DNA of 64,000 nt from a virus, in IMG/VR virus record IMGVR_UViG_3300004807_000021, positions 10,712 to 74,711 of that record; one strand, given 5' to 3'. The notes beneath the pieces are model-generated. The model was not told where the DNA came from. It saw nothing but the letters and a program-made list of their open reading frames with translations, and ran no database searches. Every line of letters begins with the position of its first letter. Positions within the stretch are counted from its first letter, which is position 1. The position numbers and the translations under genes were made by a program. This document shows positions 10,334 through 56,200 of the stretch, piece after piece.

Positions 10334-10903
10334 TTATGCTATGGTCCCCATATCTATTGCGTACAATGTACCTTCTATGTCACTTACTGTGCTAAGATTG
10401 CTGGCGTTAATATTTTCTAAAGGATTGCCAGTACCAATTATAGTACCAAACGAATAGCCGTTAGCCAAAATATGTGCTACCGGATTGGCAGCCGCTGTGC
10501 TACCAGTTAACAATGTTTCTGCTAGAACTTGTGTAGTTACTCCAAACGCATAGTTATATGGAACATCAACTCTTACACTAAGTACTCCGTTGGCGTCAAC
10601 ATAATAATATAAATCGTCTGGGCTCCATTTATACTGTTCAAAGTTAAGTCCAGAATAGTTAGGCATATGAGTTGTGCCGTCTACTCCTTCAAAGAAATCC
10701 ACACCTTGCTCAAGATTGTCATAAAATCCAGTGGTGTTTAAGGTAGTTAAGTCTTCTAGGCTAACTGGATCAGGATCTGAGTCTAGATTAATCTTGGTAA
10801 CTTTTAAGAAACCATCAGCTGTTCTATTCATGCCATAGAAGTATCTAGCAGTCTGATTAAAGAACTCTTCTGGTGTTTGACCTAGATAAAAATTATTTGC
10901 CAT
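10334..10903 (-). CDS. Hypothetical virion structural protein
   Basis: 189-aa ORF with AGGA RBS, inside the tightly packed structural operon. Confidence 0.55.
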   Translation of the reverse strand: MANNFYLGQTPEEFFNQTARYFYGMNRTADGFLKVTKINLDSDPDPVSLEDLTTLNTTGFYDNLEQGVDFFEGVDGTTHMPNYSGLNFEQYKWSPDDLYYYVDANGVLSVRVDVPYNYAFGVTTQVLAETLLTGSTAAANPVAHILANGYSFGTIIGTGNPLENINASNLSTVSDIEGTLYAIDMGTIA

Positions 10904-25653: not shown

Positions 25654-27939
25654 TTAGGTGGCAAACTTGTTGCCTGACAAACTCTTAGTGGCCTTAACTT
25701 GGGCTTGGGCTGCCGTAGCAGTCTGTTGTGTATAAGTCAGCACTTGCTTCATAGTTATATTTAACTGATGTAAGCTGGCATTGAGATCTTTCATGGATAT
25801 TTCTCCAACAGCAGGCGCAGTTTTTTGATCTGCAGGCTGTTCTTTAGCAGTCTTAGCTTTGGCTTCTGCATCAGCTTTGGCCTTAGTTTCTGCATCAGCT
25901 TTGTTGTCAACTTTGGGAGGACTAATTTTAGTTGCTGTCTTTTCAATTTCATCAAAGTTTGGTAATTTTATTCCGCCAAATCCTTCTATGCCTTTTGGTA
26001 ATGCTTCTGTTATTTTGTCGGCGCCGGATGCTTTAACTAATTTATTGCTTTCCTCACTTGCTTTTTTCTTGGCAGCTTCTAATCCACCTCCTGCATCTAG
26101 TTTAGGTATATCTTCTATCTTAAGGCTTTCAAACCTACGTTTGGCTTCCTCCATTATTTCTTTTGGATCTTTGCCTCCTGGTCCGCCTGCACTGCTAATA
26201 GTAGTCTGAACCATTTTACTCATTTCAGACATCTTAAGACCCATGTTTTGCACAGCTTCGGGTTTTAGCACAGCTTCACCTTTGTGAATTTTTGCAATCA
26301 CGTCAGCAGGTTCTACAGGACTTCCAGTTTTTTCCAGTGTACCACCGTCTCGTTGTTCTTTAGGTTGTGTGCCATTGATTGCTTCTTTACCAAAATCTAC
26401 AACCTTGCCTACACCTTTAGCAACAGTTTCTGCTCCTTTGCCTACAGCTCCTACTGTACTCAATGCTTTACTGCCTAAATCTGTAGGTGTAGGACTTTTA
26501 CCATCGTAGCCTTTATATCCTTGTGTAACTCCTAGTTCAAATGCTTGAGGTTTAGTTACTACTTGTCCATTGCTGAGTTTAGTTTGTGCTCCTAGTGCAG
26601 TATCTGCAAATTTATTAATAGAAGGTCCTGCTTTTTCATTTAGCGGATTTACCAACTTGTTCATTACTGCCGAGCCAGCATCATTCATGCGTTGTTCAAT
26701 GTTTAATGCGGCTTTAGTAGTTGCGGCGCCTTCTTTATCTGTACCATCTTTCTTTTTGGCGGCAGCATCTTCAGCAACTTGTTTGTCAATTGCGGCTAGT
26801 TTTTGTTGATCACTTAGTTTAGCAAAATTAGCATCTTGTTCTAATTTCTTACGTGCATCGTATACTGCTTGATCGTTTTTTAATTGTTGCTGTGCTTGTT
26901 TGTTGTATGCTCCGCCTACATCACCATACAGGGCCGCAGTCATTATGGAAGTATTTTTACTGTTGGCTAGTTGTTCAACACGGGCTTGTTCATTAAATTT
27001 ACTAGCGGCTTCGTGGTCGCCTCTTGCTGTGGCCTTAGCTTGTTCAGCTGTAGCAATAGCTTGTTTGCCCAACATTGCACTTTGAGTTGCGGCTTCTTGA
27101 CTGATGGCATGACCTGTAGCAAATACTTCTTTGAAGAACTGACCTTGACCACGTGCTTCAGCCTGTTGCATTTGAATAGCGAATTCTTTACGTGCTTTGG
27201 CTTCTGCTTCAGGACCTTGTTGTGCGCCCAGTAATCTAAACTTGGCTTCAACCATCGAGTCTGCTTGTGCTTTCTTCAAAGCATCTTCTTGTTCTTGACG
27301 ACTCTTACCTGTCAAGATAGCAGTTTTATTCATTTGATCCGCTAGTTCCGTAGCGGCTTTGATACTTTCTTCGTGACCTTCTTTATTATCTTTGAAACTT
27401 CCTCGTTGGAAACTGATTTGTAATGCTAGAGTATCGTTAAGTTCTTTGTTGGTAATACCCATTGAGCGCAGTCTATCTGTCTCAACGGCATTGTTATCAT
27501 ACATTTCTTTTGTAAGTTTAGCAAAGTTTTCTGCTCCCTTACTGACGTTACCACCTAAGCCAACAAACGCTGTATTGTTTTTTTGTATGGTATCTGTAAA
27601 TTCACCTAGACTGACTCGACTGCCTGCTTGAGCGGCTCGCATGCCCACTAGGTCGTTGCTGAAATTTGCACCAGATTTACTTAGATTCTGAAAAGCACCT
27701 ATGTTTTCTTGAGTGGCAGCCTTTAGATCACTCAGACCTTTACCGGCCGCGTCCGCTCCTACACCTAATCTTTCTTTTAGTTTGTCACCAACTGATCCAG
27801 CATAAGAGTCTGCTTTTTCAAATCCAGTTGTTACTGGGCCTGTGCTTTTAGGAGCCGAGTTACCACCTTGGTTCTTGGCAATAGCATCAGCAATCAGCTT
27901 GGCACCGCGTTCGTCAATTGGTGGTGGAGTGTCGGCCAT
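25654..27939 (-). CDS. Probable tape-measure protein
   Basis: 761-aa Ala/Lys/Gln-rich helical protein with an IHKGEAVL motif near the C-terminal third, close to the gp26/51-like gene. No diagnostic catalytic motif. Confidence 0.6.
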   Translation of the reverse strand: MADTPPPIDERGAKLIADAIAKNQGGNSAPKSTGPVTTGFEKADSYAGSVGDKLKERLGVGADAAGKGLSDLKAATQENIGAFQNLSKSGANFSNDLVGMRAAQAGSRVSLGEFTDTIQKNNTAFVGLGGNVSKGAENFAKLTKEMYDNNAVETDRLRSMGITNKELNDTLALQISFQRGSFKDNKEGHEESIKAATELADQMNKTAILTGKSRQEQEDALKKAQADSMVEAKFRLLGAQQGPEAEAKARKEFAIQMQQAEARGQGQFFKEVFATGHAISQEAATQSAMLGKQAIATAEQAKATARGDHEAASKFNEQARVEQLANSKNTSIMTAALYGDVGGAYNKQAQQQLKNDQAVYDARKKLEQDANFAKLSDQQKLAAIDKQVAEDAAAKKKDGTDKEGAATTKAALNIEQRMNDAGSAVMNKLVNPLNEKAGPSINKFADTALGAQTKLSNGQVVTKPQAFELGVTQGYKGYDGKSPTPTDLGSKALSTVGAVGKGAETVAKGVGKVVDFGKEAINGTQPKEQRDGGTLEKTGSPVEPADVIAKIHKGEAVLKPEAVQNMGLKMSEMSKMVQTTISSAGGPGGKDPKEIMEEAKRRFESLKIEDIPKLDAGGGLEAAKKKASEESNKLVKASGADKITEALPKGIEGFGGIKLPNFDEIEKTATKISPPKVDNKADAETKAKADAEAKAKTAKEQPADQKTAPAVGEISMKDLNASLHQLNITMKQVLTYTQQTATAAQAQVKATKSLSGNKFAT

Positions 27940-29123: not shown

Positions 29124-29180
29124 TATTTACCTGTTAGACTGTTTGAATAAAAAATACACCAAAAAATACGCATATAAATA
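29124..29180. promoter_or_regulatory. Divergent late promoters
   Basis: Minus-strand TAAATA at 29124-29129 and plus-strand TATAAATA at 29173-29180. Confidence 0.7.
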
Positions 29181-29205
29181 ACACATAATCCCATTTGGAG
29201 ACAGC

Positions 29206-30030
29206 ATGAATAACCCCTTACAAAAGTATTTTAGACAACCCAAAATTTTTATTCGCCTGCCCAGCGGAGGAGTTTTCAATCAGCCTGGTGCTATTCAGGG
29301 CGATCCTGAACACATTCCTGTCTATGGCATGACTGGCATGGACGAAATTATAATTAAAACGCCCGACAGCCTGTTGACAGGAGAAAGTACGGCAGCCATT
29401 GTGGCCAGTTGCTGTCCCACTATTAAAGATCCATGGGATGTCAGCAACATTGACCTGCCCATTATCATGGCAGCCATACGCATTGCCACATTTGGTCCCG
29501 AGCTGGGCGTTAGTCACAAGTGTGACAACTGCGGTACTGTAAACGAATATGACTTGGAACTCAATAAAATCATTGAATACTACATGACCACACAGTTTGA
29601 CAATCAATTGATTGTGGGCGAGCTGGCAGTTAAACTGCGCCCTTTGAACTATAAAGAAAGCACAGACGTCAGTATTAAAAACTTCAAGATACAACAACAG
29701 ATTTCACAAGTGGAAGCCATTGAAGATGCTGACCAACGTCAAACTGTATTGAATAGACTGTTTGTTGAACTGGCACAGGTCAACAATGAAATATTCAAAA
29801 TGGTAGTGGAAAGCGTTGAGATTGACAATCAAGTGGTAACTGAACGCAGATTCCTAGAAGAGTGGATTGACAACTGCGAAAAACATGTGTTTGATCAAAT
29901 CAGAGATCACAACAAGGGCAATGCAGATCGCTTTAGCATGCCCTTGTTTCCTGTCAAGTGTGACAACTGCGGAACCGAAGTCAAACTGTCTGTGGATCTA
30001 GATCAAAGCAGTTTTTTCGTTCAAGCCTAA
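29206..30030 (+). CDS. Baseplate hub assembly protein, T4 gp26/gp51-like
   Basis: NPL..YFRQPK..I.LPS.G, MT..DE...K.PD.LL.G, D...I..AIRIAT.G motifs and two CxxC pairs; GGAG RBS. Confidence 0.75.
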   Translation: MNNPLQKYFRQPKIFIRLPSGGVFNQPGAIQGDPEHIPVYGMTGMDEIIIKTPDSLLTGESTAAIVASCCPTIKDPWDVSNIDLPIIMAAIRIATFGPELGVSHKCDNCGTVNEYDLELNKIIEYYMTTQFDNQLIVGELAVKLRPLNYKESTDVSIKNFKIQQQISQVEAIEDADQRQTVLNRLFVELAQVNNEIFKMVVESVEIDNQVVTERRFLEEWIDNCEKHVFDQIRDHNKGNADRFSMPLFPVKCDNCGTEVKLSVDLDQSSFFVQA

Positions 30031-30251
30031 TTAGTCTCTCACCCCAAGAGATTGAACAGAAATTAATTAGGCTAGACAATCAAGTTAAAGAATTCAAACA
30101 AGACTTATTTAGAATCAGTTGGTATATGCGAGGGGGTGTAACTGTTAATGATCTACTACAGACCTACAGTTACGAAGATCGTGAAATGATATACAACATT
30201 ATCAACGACAATATCAAAGCCACTCAAGACACGCGAATGCCATTACTGTAA
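30018..30251 (+). CDS. -1 frame extension of the gp26/51-like gene (77 codons), probably reached by ribosomal frameshift
   Basis: Open frame RSSLISLSPQEIEQKLIRLDNQVKEFKQDLFRISWYMRGGVTVNDLLQTYSYEDREMIYNIINDNIKATQDTRMPLL*. It begins at the slippery T TTT TTC and has no ATG/GTG/TTG until 30126. Confidence 0.75.
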   Translation, partial: RSSLISLSPQEIEQKLIRLDNQVKEFKQDLFRISWYMRGGVTVNDLLQTYSYEDREMIYNIINDNIKATQDTRMPLL

Positions 30252-30684
30252 AGAAGAACTGCGTTCTTCTGTTCTTCGCTTTCGCTCGAACTATTCTAGC
30301 TTCACAATTAAACGCGAAGCGTTAAGATATTATCTAGATCGTTCAGTCACACTTTGCCCTAGCGGGCAAAGCGAATGGACATTATCTGAGTCGAACAATA
30401 TCACTTAGCGTTAGCACTAGAACGTAGGCGGTCATCCGGTACCTACTCATGCTGTCTTTATATGACGGCGGGCTTGTTGCATACGCTAACACACAACAAA
30501 CCGTGGGGCTACAACCCCTCTTTTAGCCTTTTGAAATCTTTCTAAACAGCAAAACCAGTTGTATGAAGGCATATCTGATCCACGTCCTGTCAAGGATAGT
30601 TGCTGAGTACTCCTACGGCTGGAGAATTCCGTCCCTCTTATTATCGAGTTGTCATGGGCGCATGATGTTGGCCTGCGCTAGCTT
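30252..30684 (-). ncRNA. Candidate large structured non-coding RNA (~430 nt) downstream of the GIY-YIG gene
   Basis: More than ten hairpins and long-range helices in an ORF-free gap of an otherwise gap-free region. Most imperfect pairs are G-U on the minus strand (A-C on plus). No family recognised. Confidence 0.65.
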
Positions 30685-31122
30685 TTAACCGTTTAACTGT
30701 TTGCCTTTGATGTGGGAGCCGTGGACACGAACAGATATCTGACCATTGTAATAGTCGTCAGATTCCAATACCCTGCGTGTAAATTGTTCTCGTGCCTCTA
30801 TGTATGACGTTTCGGCTTTACTGGTACAGTAAAATAATATTTCTCGCCGAAAGTTTTCTTGACCTAACTGCGCGACATCCTTGAGTAGTTCGTCTGAAGA
30901 TCCATAATAGTCTCTCCAGTCTGAATCAATTTTGCCACGGATTTTCTTTTTTTTCTTAGTGCCGTTCTTTAATTTAACTACTTTGTATGTGGTTTTAGAA
31001 AATTTAGCTAGTTTTTTGCCTATGTACATACGCCCTGTGACTGTATTTGTTATAAGATATACAAACCCAACACAGGTTTCGGGCAATTCTGTTATTAATT
31101 GATTTTCATAGTACCAGGACAT
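30685..31122 (-). CDS. Stand-alone GIY-YIG family endonuclease
   Basis: GFVYLITN...GRMYIGKK, Y.GSS, F.REIL..C, E...Q and YYN motifs; 145 aa with no separate C-terminal DNA-binding domain. Confidence 0.85.
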   Translation of the reverse strand: MSWYYENQLITELPETCVGFVYLITNTVTGRMYIGKKLAKFSKTTYKVVKLKNGTKKKKKIRGKIDSDWRDYYGSSDELLKDVAQLGQENFRREILFYCTSKAETSYIEAREQFTRRVLESDDYYNGQISVRVHGSHIKGKQLNG

Positions 31123-33178: not shown

Positions 33179-34188
33179 AGGCTGTTATAAATTGCTAGTA
33201 ATGTATTTTTGTCGTAAGTATCACTGTCAATATTGACAATTTGACTAGATACAATTTGATCTACACTTTCAAATGCTTGTACATCTATGTTGGTATTGAT
33301 TTCAACATCTTTCTTTTCAGCAATAAGTGTAAGTTCTCTAATGTCATAGTCTGCTACAAACTTTTCTTTGATAAAACTAGCTTCTTCATATGTGATATCT
33401 ATGTCTAGTGTAACACGTAAATGTTGCTTGGGCAATATTATTTTGTCCGCTTCATCAATTAGTTGACTTAATTTAATAGTTCTAAAGGTAGGTTGTCCTG
33501 GCCAACTATGATATTCTGGAGTTCCTCCCCATTCTAAAGTCATCATTCCACGCTCGTCGTCCCATGCATCTGCATAATTGTGCGGAAATGCATTGCCAAT
33601 ATAGATCATATTGCCTTTTTGTTGACGTTTATGAAAGTGTCCGCTAAATCCTAGCTCATATTGTTTGAAACTATCTAACTGAATCTCTCCGTGATCCGGC
33701 ATTTGCACCATTGCATTCATGAAGAAGCTGGGGAGTTCGAAGTGTCCGAAGATGTATTTTCCGCCTTTTTTGCTAATGGATCTCCACTCTTCGCCAACCA
33801 ACCACGGACAAAGGGTGACATCTCCAATAGTAGTAGGCTCGTGTACGACAGTGACACCAGGAATATACTTTCCAAATTCCACACTGTGTATGTCCCGCTT
33901 ATCCTTGTAATATAAATCATGATTACCAGGAAAGAAATAGAAGTTATCAAACGCCTGCCCCAGCTTTTCCAGGGCCCTAAGGCTATAATCCATTGTAGTA
34001 ATGTTAAGGCTATTACGATTATGATGCCAATCGCCCATAAAGATACCTGTATCACAACCTTCCTCCTTTGCTTTTGCAATGTACCAATCTACAAAGTCTT
34101 CACAGTCTTGGTTGTGTACACTACTGTTAGACTTTAATCCGAAATGAATGTCCGTAAAACAAGCTACTTTCTTAAACAACTGTGTCAT
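33175..34188 (-). CDS. gp47: Recombination endonuclease nuclease subunit (SbcD/Mre11-like)
   Basis: TDIHFG, GDWHH, GNHD, GHFE and SGHFH metallophosphoesterase motifs. Confidence 0.95.
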   Translation of the reverse strand: MTQLFKKVACFTDIHFGLKSNSSVHNQDCEDFVDWYIAKAKEEGCDTGIFMGDWHHNRNSLNITTMDYSLRALEKLGQAFDNFYFFPGNHDLYYKDKRDIHSVEFGKYIPGVTVVHEPTTIGDVTLCPWLVGEEWRSISKKGGKYIFGHFELPSFFMNAMVQMPDHGEIQLDSFKQYELGFSGHFHKRQQKGNMIYIGNAFPHNYADAWDDERGMMTLEWGGTPEYHSWPGQPTFRTIKLSQLIDEADKIILPKQHLRVTLDIDITYEEASFIKEKFVADYDIRELTLIAEKKDVEINTNIDVQAFESVDQIVSSQIVNIDSDTYDKNTLLAIYNSL

Positions 34189-35018
34189 TCTGTGTCCTCT
34201 GAATAACGTTTCAATGCCGCCGCATGTTCTCCAGCACCAGTTCTACTGTAGCTAGGATTCATACCATTAATTTCTAAGATATCGTCACGTATGTTTTGAT
34301 TACGTTTTTCTGTGTTGATAACACGGACAAAACTATTAGTTACTGCCGCAGTAAAATAAGCAAAGGGGTTATCGCTTTTACTTTCATCAAATTGCAATCC
34401 GATCTGTGTTAATTGCAATATAGCCATACCTTTCATCTCATCGTTATAAGTATAACCTCGCACATTACCGCGAGTAGCATAGCGTTCGCATAGTTTAATC
34501 ATCATACGTGCCAGGGTATTAGTGATTTGTCCAGCATCTTTATCAAACTTGCCCTTTTCTAAATCACCTTTCCAATGGCTTTTGCCTACACATATGAGTT
34601 TTTCTGGATCTTTATCATCAAACTTCCAATGTTGAAATGGTGGAAAGTTAACTTTGTCTCTATGATCAGCAAGACTTTTAGGATTTTTCTTACGTGTTCC
34701 ATTTAATGGAATATGATCAAATGTCATAACACGGAATACAACACTGGTCTTTGCTATCTTTTTATAGTCAATTTCACAATCAGCTAATTTAATCTTTTCG
34801 CCAGCTTTCTTTCTTTGTTCAAAATCTTGTTGTCCCAGTCGTTTAGCCTGTACACGTTTGGCTTCTGCAATAGTTCTAACATTAATTTTGTCTAAACTGG
34901 GTACAATCAAATCATATTGATGATATTCTGGTTTGGTGAAACTACAATATGATGTTTTTGATCTATGTATTTCTAACAACATATCCTTGTTGTTTAAGTA
35001 ATTTACTTTTGCTGTCAT
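34185..35018 (-). CDS. gp55: Sigma factor for late transcription, T4 gp55 family (enlarged)
   Basis: NYLNNKDML N-terminus; GYTY.DEM...A, FD..KS.NPFAYFT....NSF.R.I..EK motifs; adjacent to gp47/gp46. Confidence 0.9.
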   Translation of the reverse strand: MTAKVNYLNNKDMLLEIHRSKTSYCSFTKPEYHQYDLIVPSLDKINVRTIAEAKRVQAKRLGQQDFEQRKKAGEKIKLADCEIDYKKIAKTSVVFRVMTFDHIPLNGTRKKNPKSLADHRDKVNFPPFQHWKFDDKDPEKLICVGKSHWKGDLEKGKFDKDAGQITNTLARMMIKLCERYATRGNVRGYTYNDEMKGMAILQLTQIGLQFDESKSDNPFAYFTAAVTNSFVRVINTEKRNQNIRDDILEINGMNPSYSRTGAGEHAAALKRYSEDTE

Positions 35019-43600: not shown

Positions 43601-44256
43601 ACAGTGCAGACTACGACAGTAGAATAGATCCAGGATCTAGTAATATCATGGATGTGTATGTATTAACAAAAAATTACGATATTGCATTCAGACAATGGTT
43701 GTCATCAGGCGGCACGTTACCGTTACCACCAAGCTCTGATGAATTACATTCGTTGTTATCAACAAATTTAGATTTAATTAAATCTATATCAGATGAAATT
43801 ATATATCATCCAGTCAGTTACAAATTATTATTTGGATCAAATGCAGATCCTAGTGTACAAGCTACCTTCAATGTTATGATCAACCCATCGGGTACTGCAT
43901 CCAACTCTGATATTAAAGCAAGAATACTCACAGCTATAAACACATTTTTTAGTTTAGATAACTGGAACTTTGGCGACTCTTTTTATTTTACAGAATTATC
44001 TACTTACGTTATGAATCAATTAACACCTGACATTATTAATTTTGCTATTGTTCCAACACAGCCAGGATTATATTTTGGCAATTTGTTTGAAATCCAATGT
44101 CCTAGCGATCAGATTTTAATAAGCTCAGCTACTACAGATAATATAGTTGTGGTGTCTGGCTTTACTGGATCTAATCTAAAAACAGTAACACCTCAAAATA
44201 CAAATTTTTCAAATAATCAATCGGTTACTAGCACAGCGTATGGGGGCAATTTGTAA
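40615..44256 (+). CDS. gp6: Baseplate wedge subunit gp6 (enlarged)
   Basis: DFE.LR..MI.Y, DF.DY.ESS, E.FL..A.RR.SV.RL, FSDG.FG..P and ES...IK..AP..Y..QNRMIT.EDY motifs. Confidence 0.85.
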   Translation: MSSTDRQNNLLVSENWQKIYQSFKNADFQSYDFENLRRTMIEYVRTNFPEDFNDYIESSEYLALIDLIAFVGQSIAFRVDLNARENFLELAERRESVLRLSRMINYTAHRNVPANGLLKFSAISTTETVFDSNGRNLSGQYVTWNDPSNSNWHNQFISVLNAALPSTHQFGNPIDSATIYGVPTAQYRFNSNPTEVPVYPFTKNIAGRSMNFEITSTTFKNQTYIYEEPPKIGNALAFIYSDDGHSASSPGTGFFFNFVQGTLNQSTFTITNPTANQTIDINTQQINDTDVWLYSLNQQTGLEDTLWTQVPSTSGSNSIYNSINNSIKNIFSIITKAQDAISLSFSDGTFGNLPIGNFRVYYRTSNGLNYTINANDIVNVLFSVPYTSASNQTETLTISLSLATSVINSAPSESNASIKTNAPQTYYTQNRMITGEDYNISPLSANLQIAKVKAVNRTSSGISRYFDLLDPTGKYSTTNLFGDDGIIYQETYTYSTNFSYVTDLDIQGVIDNTIYDILNSPDLRNFYYANFLDYLSVSINAAWTSVTIDSNTVSGFINAPGQTIPYIVGSSTATDLKYITPGSLIKFIAPAGQCFNLTTNTLITSTVNFVGNISGNTLVITNVTGNVVTGMSLSGGTVAAGTYIVSGSGTTWIVNKSQTATATTGSISADNTANYIWAQVVKVTDDGTAGGSGVLTDGSGPIVLDKVIPSKAILSQIMPQFNRTLTPSIITAMIDLIKANDNFGLRYDALTTTWQIVYANNLNSVNAFSLANQGDTTLQNLDSSWILLFTSNTVQYTINTRKLRYIFESDAELTFYFDSNVPVYDSTSSSTVLDTVKILSVNPQPDLPTPFTQDLTWQIVSEYYGQDGYIDPKKIVVTFADSTGSGVVDNPQLFVDIVSPLTGDVTTKYIVEERYTISSGQEDYRYVANDPILGPVIVLPSQGNASFASYADGTYFYFIDTATVVKLNLSGVLKLVPTLDYKVYVGRSKLKFQYVHSADYDSRIDPGSSNIMDVYVLTKNYDIAFRQWLSSGGTLPLPPSSDELHSLLSTNLDLIKSISDEIIYHPVSYKLLFGSNADPSVQATFNVMINPSGTASNSDIKARILTAINTFFSLDNWNFGDSFYFTELSTYVMNQLTPDIINFAIVPTQPGLYFGNLFEIQCPSDQILISSATTDNIVVVSGFTGSNLKTVTPQNTNFSNNQSVTSTAYGGNL

Positions 44257-47200
44257 TGGCTATACCTTCTAAAAGAAATGGATTTAGTGTAAATTTATTA
44301 CCTAAATTTTATCAGACCGACGCTAATAAAAAGTTTTTACAATCGACAGTTGATCAATTATACCGTCCAGGTACACTGACAAAAACTAGCGGATATATTG
44401 GCCGAAAAAATGCTAAGGCCAGTACAGGTGAAGATGTTTATGTCAAGGCTGCTGATTCAGTAAGACAAAATTATCAATTAGAACCTGCAATCACTATTAA
44501 AGATAATTTAGACAATGTAGTATTTTATAAAGATTATATTGATTATATTAATCAACTTTCAGTATTTGGTGGCAATACTAGTAACCACACTCGCTTAAAC
44601 AACCAAGAAATGTATTCTTGGGATCCACATATTGACTGGGATAAATTTGTTAATTTTCAAAACTATTACTGGTTGCCTTATGGCCCTGAAACCATCACGG
44701 TATACGGGCATGAAATTCCATTAGAAAGTTCTTTTTCAGTTCAAGTACAAGCAGAAGGTTCCAACAACCAATACATTTTTACCCCAGATGGATTAACACC
44801 TAACCCAGTATTGCGACTATACAAAGGTCAAACATACACATTTTATATTGATAGTATTGGTAATCCTTTCAGTATTAAAACTCTAAGATCAACAGGCACA
44901 ACCGATCGTTATATATTTCCAAATGCTATAGACAACTATGCAGTTGAATCAGGAACAATAACATTTGTGGTTCCAATTGATGCTCCATCAATACTTTATT
45001 ATCAAAGTGAAACTGATATTAATCTTGGCGGAACCATACAAATATATGCCGCATCAGATGCTACATCTATCAATGTTGAATCTGAAATACTAGGAAAAGT
45101 TAATTATACGTTGTCTAACGGAACTCCGTTGAGCAATGGAATGAAATTAAATTTCAAAGGACAAGTATATCCAACAAGTTATGCTACGGGTGAATACTAT
45201 GTAGAGGGCGTAGGCACTGCTATTAAACTAATCGATTCTAATACTTTAGAAATTATTGGAGCTTATACAACATCTATTAATGTAGAATTTGATCAAACAC
45301 CGTTTGATCAAGAACCATTTGATACTGCTAGAGGATACGCAGGCAATTTAGATTATATATTAGTTAATCGAGCCAGTAAGGATCACAATCCGTGGAGTCG
45401 TTATAATCGATGGTTTCATAAAGATGTAATTTCTACAAGTGCTATGTATAATGGCAATAATCCGTCGTTAGATCAAACACTTAGAGCAAAAAGACCTATC
45501 ATAGAGTTTTCAGCAGATCTACGACTTTTCAATTTTGGCACAGTTGCAACTGTGGATGTTGATTTAGTTGACAGCTTCACTACAACAGCGTTTGCAACTA
45601 TAGAAGGTGCCGCTGGATATAACATCGACGGAGTTACAGTACAAGCAGGTATGCTGATATTATTTACAGCAGACACTGATCCACTAGTTGCTGGTAAAAT
45701 TTTTCAAGTAGAATACATTGATGTGTTACATTTAGATACCGGAAGCAATCAATTGCATCTAGTAGAAGTAGCATCTCCAATGAAAGATCGAGTGGTGTTA
45801 GCACGTCAAGGCATTACTAATCAAGGAAGCATGTACTGGTACAATGGTACCAACTGGACAAAAGCACAACAAAAAACGTCAGCTAATCAGCCGCCACTAT
45901 TTGATATTTACGATTCTAACGGATTTAGTTACGGCGACTCATCTGTTTATTCTGGATCAACATTTAAGGGAACTGCGTTGTTCAGTTATGCTACTGGTTC
46001 GGGTACTAACGATTTAGTTCTAGGATTTCCTTTACAATATCAAAATGTAAGTAATATAGGTGATATTGTTTTTAATTTTAACCTAGCAATAGATACTTTT
46101 CAATATAAAAATCTAAACACTAATTCACTAGAATCTAAAGCCATCGATGTAGGATTTTTATCCAGTTTAGATTATTCTAACAATACTATCTATTTGAACG
46201 GCTGGCAATTGTGCAAGACTAAAAATCTACAAGCCGCAATTAGAATCTATGATAATTCTGGATTAGTAAATAATTTTCCAGTTGATATCTATGACAATAT
46301 AAACAATTTAACAGATCTCGAAGTTAAAATTTATGTAAACGGACAGAGACTTGATAAATCTTTATGGTCAATAGTTGCTAAAAACACATACTATCAGGTA
46401 GTATTAAACAAAGATCTAGCACCAACTGACATACTAACAATTAGAGCTTTTTCAGATCAACCAATAAATTCAAACGGATTTTATGAAATTCCGTTAAATC
46501 TACAAAACAATCCGTTGAATGATGATATTGGTAATTTTACACTAGGTGAAGTAATTGACCATGTCAACAGTATTGTTGATAATACAGCATCATTTTCTGG
46601 AAATTTTCCAGGAGCAAGCAATCTTCGCGATTTAGGAAACATAACACAATACGGTACAAAGTTTGTTCAACACAGTGGTCCTTTAAGTCTTGCAGTATAT
46701 CATATTACAACAGAATCAAACAATGTTGTCAAAGCGTTGACACAAGCCAAAACTGATTATAGTGATTTCAAAAGACTTTTTATAAACACTGCCAGTTCTT
46801 TAGGTGTACATACTGATCCTGTACAATTTGTAGAATTAATAATGACAAAAATTAATTCTAACAAACCTAAAGTGGCTCCTTACTATTTCAGCGATATGGT
46901 TCCGTACGGCGCCAATGTTAAAACTGACCTGTCTGTAGTTGATTATAGAATTAAAAAATATCCGTTAAACAACACATTTAATTTAACAACGCTTTCAAAT
47001 AAAGCAGTTGGGGTATATCTAAACAATTCACAATTATTATATGGAACTCAATATATATTTGATGACCAAGGCTTCATTGAAATATCATCGAGCGTGTCAT
47101 TAAGTAACGGTGATATTATTACAACTATAGAATATGATAGTACAGACGGTAGTTTTGTTCCAGCCACTCCAACTAAATTAGGGTTATGGCCAAAGTTTGA

Positions 47201-50200
47201 ACCAAGAAAATATCTTGATACAACACTGATTTCTCCACAAAATGTAATACAAGGTCATGATGGCAGTATTGTCTTGGCTTACAATGACTACCGAGATGAT
47301 ATACTATTAGAATTAGAAAAAAGAATTTTTAATAACATTAAAGTTGAATACGATCCAACAATCTTTGATCTTACAGATATTATTCCTAGTTACAATAGAG
47401 ATACACCTTATTCTAAAAAAGAATTTGATAGTGTGTTATCTACTAATTTTTATAGTTGGATTGGGTTAGTCGGTAAGGATTTATCAACTCCATTGAATTA
47501 CGATAGAACAAATAGTTTTACTTATAATTACTCGCTAAACTCTGCTCCCAACGGTACTTCTTTACCAGGCTACTGGAGAGGTGTGTATAAATGGTTGTTG
47601 GACACAGATAGACCTCATTTGTGCCCTTGGGAAATGCTAGGATTTTCAGTAAGACCGACTTGGTGGACAAAGTTATATGGAGACGCTCCTTATACTAGCG
47701 ATAACATTCCTATGTGGACTGATATTGCAAACGGCGTAATAAAAGCACCGGGAGTTCCAGCAACTGTAAATGCAAAATATGTAAAACCATTTTTAATCAA
47801 ACACATACCAGTAGATAGCTCTGGAAACTTAATTAGTCCACAGGCTTCCGGTTTAGCATCGGGCCTTGTGCAACCAAACATTGATAATAATTTTGTGTTT
47901 GGAGACGTGAGTCCTGTAGAAAATGCTTGGACCCGTAGTAGTTATTATCCTTTTAGTGTAATTTCAACTGCAATATTACTTAATCCTGCAAAAACTTTTG
48001 GATTGATATTAGACAGACATAATATTATTCGAAATCTAGCCAATCAATTGATTTATAAGCCAACTGGATTACGTATCAAACCAGCAGATATTATTTTACC
48101 ATCAATTTATTCTAGTATTACTCGTGTACAAACAGCCGGCCTCGTTAACTATGTTGTAGATTTAATTTTTAATTATATTTTTAGTAATGACATAGCAGGG
48201 TATAATAGCTATTTGTTTGATTTGCAAAACATGACTCCTCGACTTGGATATCGTGTAGGAGCATTTACAAATCAGGCTCAATTTAATATATTATTAGAAT
48301 CTAAAACTCCTAGTAGTACTGGTAACGTGTTTATACCAGTAGAAAATTATAAAGTTTTTCTTAATAAATCATCAACTGTAAAAAAATTAGTTTATAGTGG
48401 AGTTATTATTACCAAACTATCTACTGGTTTTGAAATTAAAGGATATAGTTTAACACAACCTTACTTTAATTATTATCAATATAATGGTTCAGGAGCCACC
48501 ATAAATGTAGGCGGAATCAGCGAAAGTTATGCAGAGTGGACTGTTGGTCAACAATACATTGCAGGTACCGTAATATTATACAATGGAAAGTACTACAGAG
48601 CATTAGCTAATTTCACAGCATTAAGTACATTTAATTCTCAAGTACTAGCATCATTACCTTCATTGCCTATGACTGGAGGAGCTACAGCAACTTTGCGCAA
48701 TTCATGGGATAAAGAAACAACTACAGTTGCTCCTTATGGTACATTATTTGCCACCGTGCAACAAGTAGTAGACTTTTTGTTAGGCTACGGTGAGTGGTTA
48801 AAAGATCAGGGATTTGTATTTGATAATTTTAATAACAACTTAGGCACTGTGTCTAACTGGGAAACAAGTGCAAGAGAATTTATGTTCTGGACTACACAAA
48901 ACTGGAGTACAGGACACGACAAGTGGGAAGACTGGGAACCAAATAAATCTTACAAATACGCAACTATTGTTCGATATGACGGTGATTATTATAGTGCTTT
49001 ACAAAATATCCCATTAACTAACGAATTTGAATTCACAAAATGGAATTTATTATCGGGCCTCAACGTAGAAGGCGCAAGTGTAATTAGTTTAAGCCCTAGT
49101 GCAAATACTATTAATTTTAATACAGTATTATCTGTAGTGGACAGTATTACTAACGGTTTTAATTCATACGAGATTGTTAAAGTTAATGGAACACCGTTTG
49201 ATGTACAAAATCTTGATAGTTATAGACAAGAAAATACTGTAAGTTATACTCCAAGAAACAGTGACGGCATCTATGGTGCAAGTTTTTATCTAGTACAAAA
49301 TGAACACGTAATTGTTATAGATAATAAAACAATTTTTAATGATGTCATTTATAGTCCAACAACTGGTTACAGACAAGAAAGATTAAAAATATCAGGCTAC
49401 ACCACAACCGATTGGTATGGTGGTCTTGATATCCCAGGATTTATTTTTGATAGTGCTGTTGTAAAAGAATGGCAACCTTGGCAAGATTATAATATTGGGG
49501 ATATTGTAAACCATCACAGTTATTATTATTCTGCAAATGCGTTCATAGCTGGATCCGCTGTTTTCAATTCTTCAAATTGGAAAAAATTAGATAAAAAACC
49601 AACACCGGCTATTATTCCTAACTGGACTAATATTGCTACACAGTTTACAGATTTTTATAGCCTAGAAGTTGATAGTTTCGATGCTCCTCAACAACAAATG
49701 GCTCAGCACTTAATAGGATATCAAAAACGTCAATACTTGAATAATATTATTCAAGACGATGTTAGTGAATTCAAATTTTATCAAGGCATGATCCGAGACA
49801 AAGGTACTCAGAATGTTCTTAATAAATTGTTTGGTGTCTTAAATTCTGAAAATAAAGAAAGTCTAACTTTTTATGAAGAGTGGGCTATTCGAGTATCGCA
49901 ATACGGTGCTAGTAAAGCATTTGAGGATATTGAATTTGTATTAGATCAGGCAAAATACAATATTAATAATCCTCAAGGAACAGTACTGATAAAACGAGTT
50001 GATCCTACAATAAATCCATTTATTATTCAACTTACTCCTAATGACATTTACGTCAAGCCTCACGGATATAATTCAAGACCTTTCTTAGAATTAAAGACAA
50101 CAGTAGATTCTGAAAACGGTCCAGTTGCTATTAATCAGTTTTTAAGAAGTGCAGGTTACGTTGATAATACAGATGTATTTGTATCTATTGGCCAGTTAAA

Positions 50201-53200
50201 AGATCTAACAGGGCAGTCGGCATCTTCAATTGTTGTTGGATTAAGTTATAAAATTTCAACAGTTGGTACAACCGATTTTACACAAATAGGTGCTAGTGCT
50301 AGTACAGTTGGCACTACATTTGTTGCTACTGGAACTGGAACTGGAACTGGAACAGTGGTTTTAGATATTTCACAAATAAATGAAGGTGCATATTTCTGGT
50401 GTGCATTTGATGGTGCAAATAGTTGGAACGTTTATAGATTTACAGATATAAATTTGAATGTAACAAATGTAACTTACAACAAAACCACGCATACTCTTAC
50501 ACTAACAACACAATATGAGACATCATTGAAGGTTGGGACTTATATAGGCATAGGACAGTCTGAATCTATTCAGGGCTTTTATAAAATTGACAGTATTACA
50601 TTAAACAACATTAATATTATAGCCCCTGGATTATCGGTACCTTCGCCTTTTACTGATTTAGATAATTTAACAGTCTATACATTGTTATCTCAACGTACTG
50701 GGTATATTGATACTATAGATAATATTCTTCCTGCTAGATTAGAAGATGGCAATATTGTATGGACTGATTATGCTAGTTCTGATATCAATAGCGGTTGGGC
50801 AACTTGGAAATATAAAAAAGTTTATCAATCTACTACGAAAAATTCACCTGTAGTTGGTGCCGGAATAAATTTTGCTCAGTTTATTGCTGTAAGTAAAAAC
50901 GGAAATACAGCCGCGGTGTCTGTTGGAACATCGCAAATTGCCACTTATGACAAAGTGTCAACAGCAGTTCCTTGGACACAGCGACAGTTAATACAACCGC
51001 CATTCAACAGTGTAGGTTCACCAGCATCAGCAACCGTAATTAGTACCGCGGCAGTTAGTCCTGATGGAACATGGTTGGCTACTGGAAGTCCTACATCGGG
51101 TTCTTCTAGCACATACTATATTGGAGTATATTCTCCTGCAACTGTATATGCTGTTAACACTATCGTGTCTTACAACAGTATACTTTATCAAGCATTGTTC
51201 CCAGTGCCTGCCGGAAATACACCAAATCAAAACAGTGTTTTCTGGAATCAAATTTTTTACACACCTATATCTGATACATCCACTTACAATACTGGAGTAA
51301 CAGCAAATGGTATGATAACGCTGTATCAAAAAGATGCAAACAATATCTATCAGATAGTTGATTCTATTCTAAGTCCAGTTATTTCAAATGAAAAATTTGG
51401 ATCTGCTATTGTATTTGATTCAAGCAATATGTATGTAAGTGCTCCTGCCTATAACAATAACACTGGAAGAGTTTATCAATTTTCGTATACAACTACCCCG
51501 CAAGTAACGTCAATTTACGACGAAGTTAATAGTACAGGCACTGTATTAAAATTACAATCTACTGCTGGAATATCTGCTGGAATGATAATTTCTGGTAATG
51601 ATATCTTTGGAAATTCTGCTTTTAATTCCGATCAAGTAGTTGAATATGTTCTTACAAGATTATTGTTTTCACCAGCTATAGACACAACTGGGAAAGAAGT
51701 AATTAATACTGTTTATAATACTAGTTCAACACAAATAAATGTTTCTAGTATCCTATCAGGCGCTACTGTTTCTCTATATAATAGTTCATATGCTTACAGT
51801 ATTCCAAACTTAACAGTATCGTCAACAGGATTGACGTCAATTAACCAGTTGGTCACTACACATACGTTGTCTAGCGGTGGCGTTACTGGCACAAATACAT
51901 TTATTTTAACAACAACTGTATCTGACATAGCTGTTGGATATCTCATTGTTGGTTATGGATTACCGCCAAGCAGTTATGTTGGCGCAATATCAAGTGTCGG
52001 TGCGCCCGCCAAAACACAAATTACTGTAGTAGATTCGCAAGGTGCATCTAGGGCTATACAAAATTTTATAGCAACAGGTACTGGAACGTATGCTTTTTAT
52101 AAAATTATAAATTACAATTTTGTTGAAATAAAAGGTCAAAAAGATCTTGTAACTAATTCATCGACCTTACCAATTACTCGAGTAACATTTGGTAGTACAA
52201 GTTTTCCTAACGGAGATCCTACTTTAACCTTTAATATAAGTTCTACATACGTTCAGAGTAGTAAAGCTGTAATTTTATCATCTGCACCTGATTTAACTCC
52301 AAATGGAAGTTTAACATTCTCATCAGTTGGATGGTCATATACTCGATCATTTGCTGGCGATACAGTTAATAGTTATTTTGGATCTCAGTTAGCATTGAGT
52401 CGAGATGGTAGCACATTAGCAGTGTCAGCAATAGGCGGTTCTGTAGGAAAAGTTTATGTGTATCAAGCAGGAGTCTTAATACAGACCTTGACAGGATTTT
52501 TACCAACATTCGGTCAAGGAATTACAGTATCAGATGATGGAACATATATTGCTGTAAGCGATAACACCACTGGAGTTTCTAATATAAATCAACGAGGCAG
52601 TGTTGGTGTTTATCAACTGTCATCAAACAACACGTATCAATTAGTTTCAAACCTAGTACCGCACACTCCTGAAACAAATGGAGAATTTGGTACTTCGATC
52701 TCCTTCATGAATGACTACAAGACACTAGCAGTTTATAGTCGTTATGGATCTAGTACAACAACAACTACTTTTGATAAAACTTCTGTAGCAACTACTTTTG
52801 ATAAAAAATCTACCAATTTTATTACCACACAGATTGCCAGCGGACGGGTCGATGTGTATGATAGATATAATGTAAATTGGGTTTACAGTGAAAGTTTACC
52901 TCACACATTTGATTTTACTAGCGGCTATGGCCAAGGATTGTCAGTGGGCGCAAATAATATATTTGTTGGGGCACCACTATTAACAGTTGGTACAGCAGGA
53001 GCTCAGGGACTATTAACAATTTATTCAAAAGATCCAAATGCAGTATCGTGGACTATAGATAAAACACCTGTGCCTATAGCCGATGTATCAAAAATTAAGA
53101 AAGCATTTTTGTATAGCAGATCAACAAATAAATTATTAACTTATATTGATATAATTGATCCTTTACAGGGAAAAATTGCTGGACCTGCTGAGGAAGAATT

Positions 53201-56200
53201 AAAATATAAAACATTTTACGATCCAGCAACATATTCATACAGTAATGGATCTGCATCCGTAACAGTTAATTCTAGCGGATTCTGGTCTACAGAACAACAG
53301 GGACAACTATGGTGGAATCTGTCTACAACAAAATTTGTAGTTCCATATTTTCCAAATCCAATATATAGAAATAACACTTGGAATACATTGGCCACTGGCG
53401 CGAGTGTGGATATTTACGAATGGGTTACTACACCTTTATTACCAAGTCAGTGGGATGCACAATCATCTACACCTGCTGGACAATCACAAGGTATAACTGG
53501 AACAACGCTATACGGCGATAGTGCATATTCTGTAACTAAAACATATAATAGTGTAACTAAAACATTTAAGAATACCTATTACTATTGGGTTAAAAATAAA
53601 ACCACAGTTCCAGATGTTCCAGGACGACACATTTCTGCTCAAGATGTTTCAAGTTTAATTTCTAATCCAAGGGGGCAAGGTTATACCTATCTAGCGTTGA
53701 TGGGCACAGATTCTTTCAGTCTTGTAAATGTGTACGGTTATCTAAAATCAACAGATACTGTACTAGCAGTAGAATATTGGACTACAGATAAAATACATCA
53801 AAATATCCATAGTCAATGGAAACTAATCAGTGCAGATACTATTGTACAACTGCCAAAAACAATTAAAGAAAAATGGATCGACAGTCTATGCGGAGTCGAT
53901 GTAACAGGACGAGCAGTTCCTGATGTACTGTTACCTCCGAAATTAAAATACGGTGTTGAAAATAGACCACGCCAAGGTATGTTTGTAAATCGTGTTGAAG
54001 CATTGAAACAATTTATAGAAGCAGTAAATTTGATTTTATTAAAAAATCAAATCGTCGATAATTATAATATTGAAGATTTGTATAAAGTAGATCCACCGCC
54101 AAACATTATATCTGGGTCGTATGACAAAATAGTAGATACAGATGCAGATTTGTCATACTCGATCAATTTGTTTATAAGACCCGAGTTGGCTCCTATCATA
54201 GTTAATGGTAGAATTACTGGTATTACTATTATTTCAACAGGGCGTGGTTATATTCAACCGCCTTATATAACTATTTCTGGTTCAGGTAAAGATGCTCTAG
54301 TAAGAGCTAATATTGATACTAATGGAAGAATACAATCTGTAACTGTGCTAGCAGGCGGAATAGGCTATGATGATTCGACAGTTGCCACTGTTCGAGACTA
54401 TTCTGTACTTGTACGCAGTGATAGTCAAGCTAGTAATTCTTGGAGCATTTATTCTTTTGATCCTACCTATAAAGATATGACTGGTAGTATTGTAGGACGT
54501 TGGAGTCGATCAGCAACACAAGCATATGATGTAACGCAGTACTGGACTAAAGTTGATTGGTATGCCAGCGGATACAATCAGTTTACTGCGGCAGATTATT
54601 CTGTTCAATTATTTGTGGATTTGAATTTCTTAAATGCTCAGATTGGTAACATTGTAAAAGTTTCAATGGCAACATCGACACAGTGGATGTTGTTAGAAAA
54701 ATATGCAAATTCTAACTCTGTAGATTGGACACAATCTTATCGAGTCGTTGGAATTCAAGCTGGTACAATTCAGTTCAATTCTACAGTATATCAAACAAGT
54801 TTCTCCGCAGTTGGCTATGATGCAGATACGTATGATACTGGTGCATACGATATCAAAGCCGGTACTGAATTGCGAATTATTCTTAGTACTTTACAAGATA
54901 AAATCCTAATTGGGGATCTATATAAAAATTATTTAGATTTATTTTTTAGAAGTATACGTTATGCACATAGTGAACAGCCTTATATTGACTGGGCGTTCAA
55001 AACTAGTTTTGTCAGAGCCACTCATAATGTTGGCGGATTTACACAACCTGTTTATTATCCTGTAGATAATCTTAGCAATTTCCAAGACTACATAGCTGAA
55101 GTTAAGCCCTATAGAACAAAAATTAGAGAGTATATAAGTCAATATACAAATACTAATACTCCTGATGTTAGTTCTACAGCAGTCACTGACTTTGATTTAC
55201 CTGCTGATATTAAAAATAGTTCATTAAGTATTATTAATTCATTTGTGGTTGATGGAAAAATATCTTCAGATTCTCCAGAAGTTCAAGTGTACCCTTGGAA
55301 ATTCTGGTTAGACAATGTTGGATTCCAAGTTATTGATTTGAAAATTGTTTCAGGTGGTAGCGGATATGTAACACAACCCCAGGTGATATTTACAAGTACA
55401 AGTGGCAGTGGAGCATCTGCGCAGGCGTTTTTTACAAATGGCGTTGTTAACAGAATTATACTGCTTACTAAGGGATCTGGATATTTAGAAGCTCCAACAG
55501 TATCTATAGTTGGAGGATTGAGTACGACCGGAACACCTGCAACAGTAGTGGCCATATTAGGCAATAGTGTTGTTAGATCCAACTTAACTGGAATTAAATT
55601 CGATCGTATCAGTTACAAGCCTTATATTTCTAAAATTGAAGAAACTATTGAATTACCGGGATCTGGATCTTTGTTATCGTATGAGTTACCGTGGCCACCA
55701 GATTTGCGTACTAACAAGTCTTCGATAACAGTATTGAATAAAAATACTAATCAAAGCTATCCTTTGCTACCAGAAGATTATTCGTTGTCTCAAATTAAAA
55801 ATAAAATAAATGGTGAAACACAATACTCGGGAATTATAACTTTTGTAAAACCTCTTGCGGCAAATGTAATTGCTACCTTATCTTATGTAAAAGATACATC
55901 TGTATTAAATTCTATTGACAGGATCAATTTTAATTATAATCCTATCAGCGGAATGGTAGGTAAAGAATATAATCAACTAATGTTAGGTGTTGACTACGGC
56001 GGAACCATTGTTGGCAATTTAGGATTTACTGCTGGCGGTGGATGGAGTGAACAACCATACGGTACAGACAAGTGGGATTCATTTGATCCAACTTTTACTG
56101 ATTATACAGTTACTGAACCCGCAGTTCCTACGACTTCAAATCCTATTAAAACAACATGGACGTTGCCATATGTTCCGGCTAGCGGAACTGCTATTAACGT

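Follow-up and report, generated by a model that had tools for sequence, protein, structure and literature searches.

Here we describe a phage gene whose 3′ end very probably programs a -1 ribosomal frameshift, giving two proteins with a common N-terminal part and different C-termini. The gene lies on the plus strand at 29206-30030 of a 64,000-nucleotide (nt) stretch of DNA (hereafter the window), which covers positions 10,712 to 74,711 of IMG/VR record IMGVR_UViG_3300004807_000021, a 74.7-kb fragment of a freshwater phage (genome ~21% complete). Its 0-frame product of 274 residues is related to the T4 proteins gp26 and gp51, and we refer to it as the hub gene; a ribosome slipping near its end would instead make a protein of 348 residues, composed of 0-frame residues 1-271 and a 77-residue extension. 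The original prediction, made from the letters of the window, had proposed this frameshift with product lengths (274 and about 348 residues) that are correct. We arrive at the same interpretation because it is the only one that fits, all together, an invariant slippery heptamer, a conserved and mostly start-less extension, a covarying hairpin and natural fusions of the two frames.

An invariant slippery heptamer ends a gp26-like gene

The 274-residue protein matches the Pfam family PF12322 (T4_baseplate; 48.6 bits, with a gathering cut-off of 24.5, E 1.1e-12, residues 59-271) and the PHROG family phrog_150, 'baseplate hub' (5e-16), and its fold matches in BFVD are gp26/gp51-like hub proteins. 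It is a member of PF12322, the T4 gp26/gp51 family, and the label given to it originally is sound. In the 0 frame the gene ends ...AGT TTT TTC GTT CAA GCC TAA, with the stop at 30028-30030 and a protein end of ..SSFFVQA*, and reading of this open reading frame (ORF) agrees with the prediction that the heptamer T TTT TTC at 30012-30018 (plus strand) is correctly phased, three sense codons ahead of the stop. The heptamer has the X XXY YYZ form in 0-frame phase that defines programmed -1 slippery sites. TTTTTTC is not enriched in the window (15 copies versus 17.9 expected); the other 14 copies are antisense to genes or intergenic, and the one at 30012-30018 is the sole gene-sense copy.

Two scans of IMG/VR yielded 178 loci in which the end of the gene is complete. 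Of these, 177 are of the frameshift type with an in-phase heptamer; the remaining one (L101) is a true in-frame fusion. Removal of identical junctions left 144 loci, a count that includes eight cultured jumbo phages and leaves the cyanophages Syn9 and P-SSM2 outside. By sequence comparison, all 144 relatives carry the in-phase heptamer (TTTTTTC in 142, TTTTTTT in 2), which far exceeds chance. TTTTTTC is in phase in Atu_ph07, Phosso, PA5oct, GAP32, SCTP-2 and E. coli phage A4, XacN1 and RAS14 have TTTTTTT at the slip site, and Syn9 and P-SSM2 also have an in-phase TTTTTTC.

The codon immediately ahead of the T-run specifies six different amino acids and always ends in T (AAT 87, AGT 30, GAT 16, ACT 5, CAT 4, GCT 2); elsewhere in these genes, Asn is encoded by AAT at 56% of its positions and Asp by GAT at 67%, and the remaining Phe-Phe pairs are spelled TTTTTC in just 9 of 41 cases. 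T4 gp26 has a homologous ..EFFELL* end spelled TTC TTT, which is non-slippery. Because of this codon choice, the T-ending preceding codon and the T4 spelling, we conclude that the T-run is conserved as nucleotides and not as a Phe-Phe pair.

A covarying stem lies five nucleotides downstream

Beyond a 5-nt spacer (30019-30023, plus strand), the original prediction had placed a 10-bp stem formed by AGCCUAAUUA (30024-30033) and UAAUUAGGCU (30064-30073). This stem is real and extends to 12 bp, with a 5′ arm at 30024-30035 that includes the 0-frame TAA and a 3′ arm at 30062-30073 that encodes ..LIRL.. in the -1 frame (both on the plus strand). In the window it has a minimum free energy of -16.9 kcal/mol (z = -3.7), and 0 of 200 shuffles fold as well. 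When 60 relatives were placed in an ungapped alignment, 93.5% of cells in the 12-bp stem were paired and 0 of 500 shuffles reached the observed values; with one arm slid by 1-3 nt as a control, pairing fell to 10-51%. Compensatory changes occur at 6 of the 12 pairs; among them, 19 sequences have AU in place of GC at 30034/30063, and 9 have CG in place of UA at 30032/30065. The stem, with its 5-nt spacer, is thus a downstream RNA structure inside the 5-9 nt range expected of -1 frameshift signals, and it covaries.

Not every part of the proposed fold fared as well. In the same 60 relatives, neither the enclosed UCUCU/AGAGA hairpin (49.7% of cells paired) nor the alternative or pseudoknot helix GUUCAA/UUGAAC (44.2%) pairs better than shuffles, and both were dropped. 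Conservation is likewise lacking at the three outer pairs of the minimum-free-energy fold, which form in only about half of the sequences, and RNAalifold alone recovers 8 of the 12 stem pairs with a weak energy. More distant lineages have strong stem-loops of their own 2-7 nt past the heptamer (Atu_ph07, Phosso, XacN1, L005 and L012), that of Atu_ph07 reaching -33.4 kcal/mol (z = -6.8); in PA5oct, GAP32 and SCTP-2, no convincing stem-loop was found downstream of the heptamer.

Heptamer and stem together bear on the rival that would give an identical protein (..SFFR..), namely transcriptional slippage, in which RNA polymerase adds one U at the T-run and the resulting seven-T mRNAs encode the same 348-residue fusion. 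The analyses here cannot separate the two mechanisms by product, and the slip signal is indeed a homopolymer run, seven Ts long in XacN1 and RAS14. The sequencing runs listed for the stretch include no RNA run. Six Ts, however, make a short run for bacterial RNA polymerase to slip on efficiently. Known bacterial transcriptional slippage occurs on runs of about 8-9 or more. A longer run would favor slippage, yet the T-run is unlengthened in 142 of 144 lineages, and the polymerase-based explanation gives no role to the strict X XXY YYZ phase or to a covarying stem exactly 5 nt downstream. We regard transcriptional slippage as improbable.

The -1 frame encodes a conserved extension

Turning from the signals to the product of the frameshift, we found that the -1 frame of the window is as originally described: closed by a stop at 29961-29963, then open over 29964-30251, with its first ATG, GTG or TTG at 30126. 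The extension itself occupies 30018-30251 on the plus strand, where 77 codons (RSSLISLSPQEIEQ...WYMRGG...MPLL) end in a TAA at 30249-30251. A tblastn search with these 77 residues reached Atu_ph07 and Phosso, where the matches again lie in the -1 frame, immediately at the hub gene's end. In the cultured jumbo phages no stop interrupts that frame between the heptamer and the end of an extension of 55-80 residues.

Conservation begins at the first post-slip codon (FFR..L...EI...WYMRGG...DR...I..NIE), and in the jumbo phages it extends 5′ of the ATG chosen by annotators, with motifs such as ..PEEI... Across 75 unique 77-codon extensions, column entropy by -1-frame codon position is 0.95 / 0.58 / 1.43, and this frame therefore has the signature of coding sequence. 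The first potential start lies 114 nt past the heptamer in 47 of the 74 unique junctions of our first set, where it is the Met of WYMRGG; one relative reads WFLRGG and has no Met at that position. The ATG at 30126 had been put forward as the sole possible start, which holds for the window and most relatives and fails for Atu_ph07 and Phosso. With these two exceptions, sequence comparison indicates that the -1 ORF has no initiation signal of its own and that its protein-level conservation starts at the slip site. Homologue alignments, the check named with the prediction, show conservation of the heptamer, of -1-frame coding 5′ of MRGG and, in the 60 relatives aligned, of the stem.

No match for the 77-residue extension was found in Pfam or PHROGs. 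In one relative (L090, IMGVR_UViG_3300008119_000718), the extension resembles the others only as far as ..DDREAYY, about midway, and then continues in another reading, which probably reflects an indel or assembly error in that contig.

Natural fusions and the two-gene alternative

An exhaustive phmmer search with the extension returned 108 proteins, mostly small ORFs called from varied starts. Among them are at least eleven proteins of 319-351 residues in which the PF12322 domain runs in frame into the extension. Fusion junctions read ..SFR.., with a single Phe, and in L101 the junction DNA is CGT TTT CGT, two bases short of the slippery version. A quick tree places the fusions in two or more groups, and nine fusions lie inside frameshift-type clades. 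An AlphaFold2 model of one natural fusion, P0142, has a predicted local distance difference test score (pLDDT) of 88.7 and a predicted template modelling score (pTM) of 0.84, with extension helices at residues 266-275, 279-306 and 321-341 (pLDDT 82-93, except for the last few residues). What the natural fusions show is only the viability of a fused protein; that the trans-frame protein is produced by a slip we infer from sequence.

These data also speak to the possibility that the extension is an independent protein of about 41-77 residues, translated by coupled re-initiation or from a non-canonical start, with the T-run kept for Phe-Phe only. Most database records do annotate the extension as a separate small gene, small ORFs with ATG starts are annotated in GAP32, XacN1, SCTP-2, RAS14, A4 and Syn9, and T4 gp26, which has no frameshift, likewise ends ..FF... 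Moreover, Atu_ph07 (L001, 3004-3007) and Phosso (L002, 2914-2917) have an ATGA that overlaps the 0-frame stop and lies in the -1 frame, four codons past the heptamer, which keeps this two-gene explanation alive for both lineages. The annotated starts, however, fall at differing, non-homologous places inside conserved sequence, and in the window and the 47 junctions noted above there is no ATG, GTG or TTG before +114 nt, yet the 36 preceding codons are conserved as protein. A Phe-Phe requirement cannot explain invariant TTT TTC codons or the invariant T ahead of them, and in the natural fusions the extension works as the C-terminal module of the same polypeptide (modelled pLDDT 83-93, pTM 0.84). 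Overall, we judge the existence of two separate genes to be very unlikely.

A single 348-residue ORF could also look split if the assembly were off by one base in the T-run or if the gene had recently broken, and homopolymer runs are error-prone and in-frame single-ORF relatives exist, but contigs from four other, independent freshwater runs carry the same T-run and span 29700-30289 or more with no gaps (three identical, one with a single base difference), the same arrangement recurs in 144 non-identical relatives, finished cultured-phage genomes included, and true fusions differ by two bases (four Ts instead of six) and have no second Phe; artefact or decay is hardly credible, and an assembly artefact is refuted as far as sequence data allow.

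Proposed decoding of the hub gene

With programmed -1 frameshifting as the preferred reading, most ribosomes would stop at the TAA at 30028 and release the 274-residue short form. Some would slip at U UUU UUC (30012-18) with tRNA-Phe on UUU in the P site and on UUC in the A site; the two tRNAs would re-pair one base upstream (UUU UUU), and decoding would continue with CGU (Arg) UCA AGC... in the -1 frame to the TAA at 30249-51, giving the 348-residue long form. The 12-bp stem-loop 5 nt past the heptamer most likely raises the slip frequency. Both forms would share a chaperone-like body, and the long form would add a helical C-terminal module, following the logic of the phage lambda G/GT pair; by the same analogy, the shared part may hold tape measure or hub proteins while the extension recruits another tail or hub partner. 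T4 would encode equivalent short and long forms as the paralogous genes 26 and 51. Taken as a whole, two-way decoding, stem stimulation and two chaperone-like forms are likely to be the best explanation, in which we infer the occurrence and efficiency of the slip and the partners and roles of both forms.

The two forms should be distinguishable as peptides: the C-terminal tryptic peptide of the short form is LSVDLDQSSFFVQA, and the predicted junction tryptic peptides of the long form are LSVDLDQSSFFR and then SSLISLSPQEIEQK. In the full-text literature, where subscription journals are mostly outside coverage, we found no report of a slip in the gp26/gp51 family, and a slippage join is annotated in none of the phage records examined.

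Relation to T4 gp26, gp51 and the cyanophages

T4 gp26 (208 residues) and gp51 (249 residues) match PF12322 end to end, and gp51 has ~48 extra C-terminal residues. Atu_ph07, PA5oct, GAP32, XacN1, Syn9 and P-SSM2 have one PF12322 gene per complete genome; T4 has two. The single gene of Syn9 and of P-SSM2 has a ..SFFG* or ..SFFV* end and is followed, past the in-phase TTTTTTC, by a -1 extension of 60-65 residues that hhalign aligns over its whole length with a profile of the gp51 tail (probability 95%, E 2e-8). By profile comparison, then, the C-terminal tail of T4 gp51 and the cyanophage extension are homologues, which also bears out the gp26/gp51-like label beyond the Pfam match. In the RefSeq record of Syn9 (L185, NC_008296), the 47-residue gene annotated at 2249-2392 as 'baseplate hub assembly catalyst, T4 gp51-like' corresponds to the distal portion of the -1 extension, and T4-like cyanophages probably never make their 'gp51' as a protein of its own.

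For the jumbo phages the corresponding relationship is fainter. Their extension is collinear with both the gp51 tail and the cyanophage extension but matches weakly (E 9e-4 to 0.011), its profile gave no significant hhalign match to single T4 gp51 or to T4 gp26, and a full-length comparison between the fusion profile and that of gp51 aligned only the first ~100 columns. Because position, frame and heptamer are the same, common origin is the simplest reading.

The T4 pair thus resembles the window gene in its Pfam family, in the ..FFELL* end of gp26, which is like that of the short form, and in the ~48-residue C-terminal tail of gp51, which sits where the extension sits. It differs in that genes 26 and 51 are separate, divergently transcribed paralogues with no slippery site, in an identity to the window protein that is under BLASTP significance, and in a tail that is ~25 residues shorter than the jumbo-phage extension. 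Gene 26 also yields gp26* from an internal in-frame start (26′ in the T4 record), which is another two-product route; Nivinskas and colleagues reportedly found in 1992 that the start codon of gp26* is AUU.

A possible chaperone-like fold outside the usual gene order

The predicted domain layout of the 274-residue protein comprises an N-terminal domain (residues 1-104) and four invariant Cys at 106, 109, 252 and 255. When residues 1-104 were folded alone (79 sequences), the model reached a pLDDT of 88.3, and its top three structural matches were HK97 gp13 (2OB9), B. subtilis YqbN (3KLU) and Rbstp2171 (3FGX), each spanning 84-87 residues, or nearly the whole N-domain. These are exactly the three solved tail assembly chaperones named in PMC9603447. 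Three tail assembly chaperone structures were among the weak matches of a VIA search with the whole model, a Foldseek search of the whole model against the PDB gave nothing at an E of 0.001 or better, and a sequence profile of the hub protein gave nothing against the PDB. The cysteines form a CxxC ... CxxC pattern whose halves are distant in sequence and adjacent in the model, which suggests that a zinc site clamps the domains together; at least the second pair has its equivalent in T4 gp26 (KCPECG).

The original prediction went on to call the gene the tape-measure chaperone of its lineage. A candidate tape measure does lie two genes away, in the form of a 761-residue ORF (25654-27939, minus strand) whose ESM-Atlas features match three tape-measure clusters at 0.89-0.90; it is upstream and divergent, and not adjacent as in lambda. 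The direct neighbours of the hub gene are a divergent 370-residue ORF and a GIY-YIG endonuclease. Neither the 761-residue nor the 370-residue ORF has a Pfam or PHROG match, and the ESM Atlas gave nothing usable for the latter.

Several observations weigh against parts of this interpretation. At the level of the frameshift, both stem arms are coding (S-L-I and L-I-R-L), and part of their conservation is protein constraint, although this does not account for the compensatory changes; beside the slip site in Atu_ph07 and Phosso, the ATGA starts make a coupled restart, with the extension as a separate protein, possible. At the level of the link to T4, the match between the jumbo-phage extension and the gp51-tail profile is weak in hhalign (E 9e-4 to 5e-3, probability 7-23%), and the annotations of the fusions P0142 and P0178 carry no PF28602, the Pfam family of the gp51 C-terminus. 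At the level of function, the fold matches of residues 1-104 are low (Z 4.7-5.7), values that the search tool itself cautions could reflect only a common arrangement, the hub gene lacks the G/GT-type position between tail tube and tape measure genes, and the identification of the 761-residue ORF as a tape measure is a language-model lead only.

With these points counted, the balance tips slightly towards a tape-measure or tail-assembly chaperone role for the hub gene products. Support for that role is real but indirect: tape-measure binding, a need for the proteins in assembly and their absence from the virion would follow by analogy. Leiman et al. (2010, PMC3004832) count T4 gp26 and gp51 among the hub assembly chaperones and state that the particle contains no gp51.

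Comparison with known frameshifting genes

The closest parallel is lambda gpG/gpGT. Xu, Hendrix and Duda, writing in Molecular Cell in 2004, are reported to have described the conserved -1 frameshift in the tail assembly chaperone genes of long-tailed phages. Like lambda, the hub gene would give a short and a long product with a common N-terminus, the long one gaining a C-terminal extension when ribosomes slip by -1 at an X XXY YYZ heptamer close to where the first ORF ends. The likeness may extend to the N-domain, whose model resembles the tail assembly chaperone fold at the low Z scores given above. The family members T4 gp26 and gp51 are listed as chaperones on which tail-hub assembly depends (PMC3004832).

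The differences are equally concrete. The hub gene belongs to another sequence family (PF12322), its shared part is 271 residues long versus ~130 and has a four-Cys motif and a helical middle domain, its extension is shorter (77 residues), a long-range stem-loop stimulator is conserved, and, in contrast to the lambda-type order, the gene is not found between the major tail or tube gene and the tape measure gene. HK97 gp13, YqbN and Rbstp2171, for their part, are stand-alone proteins of ~100-130 residues with no detectable sequence relation to the hub protein. What would be new is thus a tail assembly chaperone frameshift in a different protein family, architecture and gene position, as judged from sequence.

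The signal itself resembles that of E. coli dnaX (tau/gamma) and IS elements, in which a heptamer is likewise followed by a stem-loop stimulator at 5-6 nt spacing. Here the heptamer is U UUU UUC, there A AAA AAG, and no upstream Shine-Dalgarno-like stimulator is seen in the hub gene. The slip lengthens the hub protein, whereas it shortens the dnaX product.

Genomic context

The window carries T4-type genes for a portal, a protease, a major head protein, a gp46/47-like nuclease and a gp55-like late sigma factor (34185-35018), together with the T4-type baseplate proteins gp5, gp25 and gp6 (all as -like proteins). A single ORF of 5,229 residues at 44256-59945 (plus strand) lies in the baseplate module, directly 3′ of the gp6-like wedge gene. 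The closest cultured relatives of the hub protein, at 24-29% identity, are from jumbo phages: PA5oct, Atu_ph07, Phosso, GAP32, XacN1, SCTP-2, RAS14 and the E. coli Asteriusvirus group.

Upstream of the hub gene, a GGAG Shine-Dalgarno sequence (29197-29200, plus strand) lies 5 nt ahead of the ATG, and reading of the sequence suggests a T4-type late-promoter-like box, TATAAATA, at 29173-29180 (plus strand). On the other side, a hairpin GAAGAAC-tgc-GTTCTTC at 30253-30269 directly follows the -1 stop; it was not called by a terminator scan, which called none 3′ of 30251. A gap of ~430 nt free of ORFs extends past the -1 stop and is followed by the GIY-YIG endonuclease, a 145-residue SegE-like protein on the minus strand (PF19835, 2.5e-33; 30252-31122 for gap and gene).

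Implications for the T4 superfamily

To our knowledge, nearly all long-tailed phages share a conserved -1 frameshift in their tail assembly chaperone genes, with T4-type phages as the reported exception, and we know of no mechanistic explanation of the role of gp26 and gp51 in hub assembly. If true, the frameshift described here would place G/GT logic within the T4 superfamily and possibly end the T4 exception. The chances seem evenly divided that the gp26/gp51 family is the missing G/GT-equivalent tail assembly chaperone of the whole superfamily, descended from an ancestral single gene with a -1 frameshift. The history that goes with this proposal commands belief and doubt in equal measure: the frameshift would have been kept in jumbo phages and T4-like cyanophages, T4 would have hard-wired the isoforms by duplication, and in a few lineages the two frames would have become one. 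Should gp26/gp51 prove to be the chaperone of the T4 superfamily, frameshifting would be universal among long-tailed phages, and the hub or tape-measure function of gp26/gp51, a question decades old, would become directly testable.

More immediately, hundreds of phage genomes would carry a wrong or incomplete annotation at loci where an isoform of 300-350 residues is very probably made and current records show a 'hypothetical' ORF of 40-80 residues, nothing, or a 47-residue 'gp51-like' gene. For PA5oct, GAP32, Atu_ph07 and Syn9 the predictions are testable, in the form of a junction peptide and a mutable heptamer and stem. Single-ORF fusions and the two-gene solution of T4 constitute a natural experiment, as alternative encodings of one pair, and together they give a rationale for asking whether the ratio of short to long form governs hub or tape-measure assembly.

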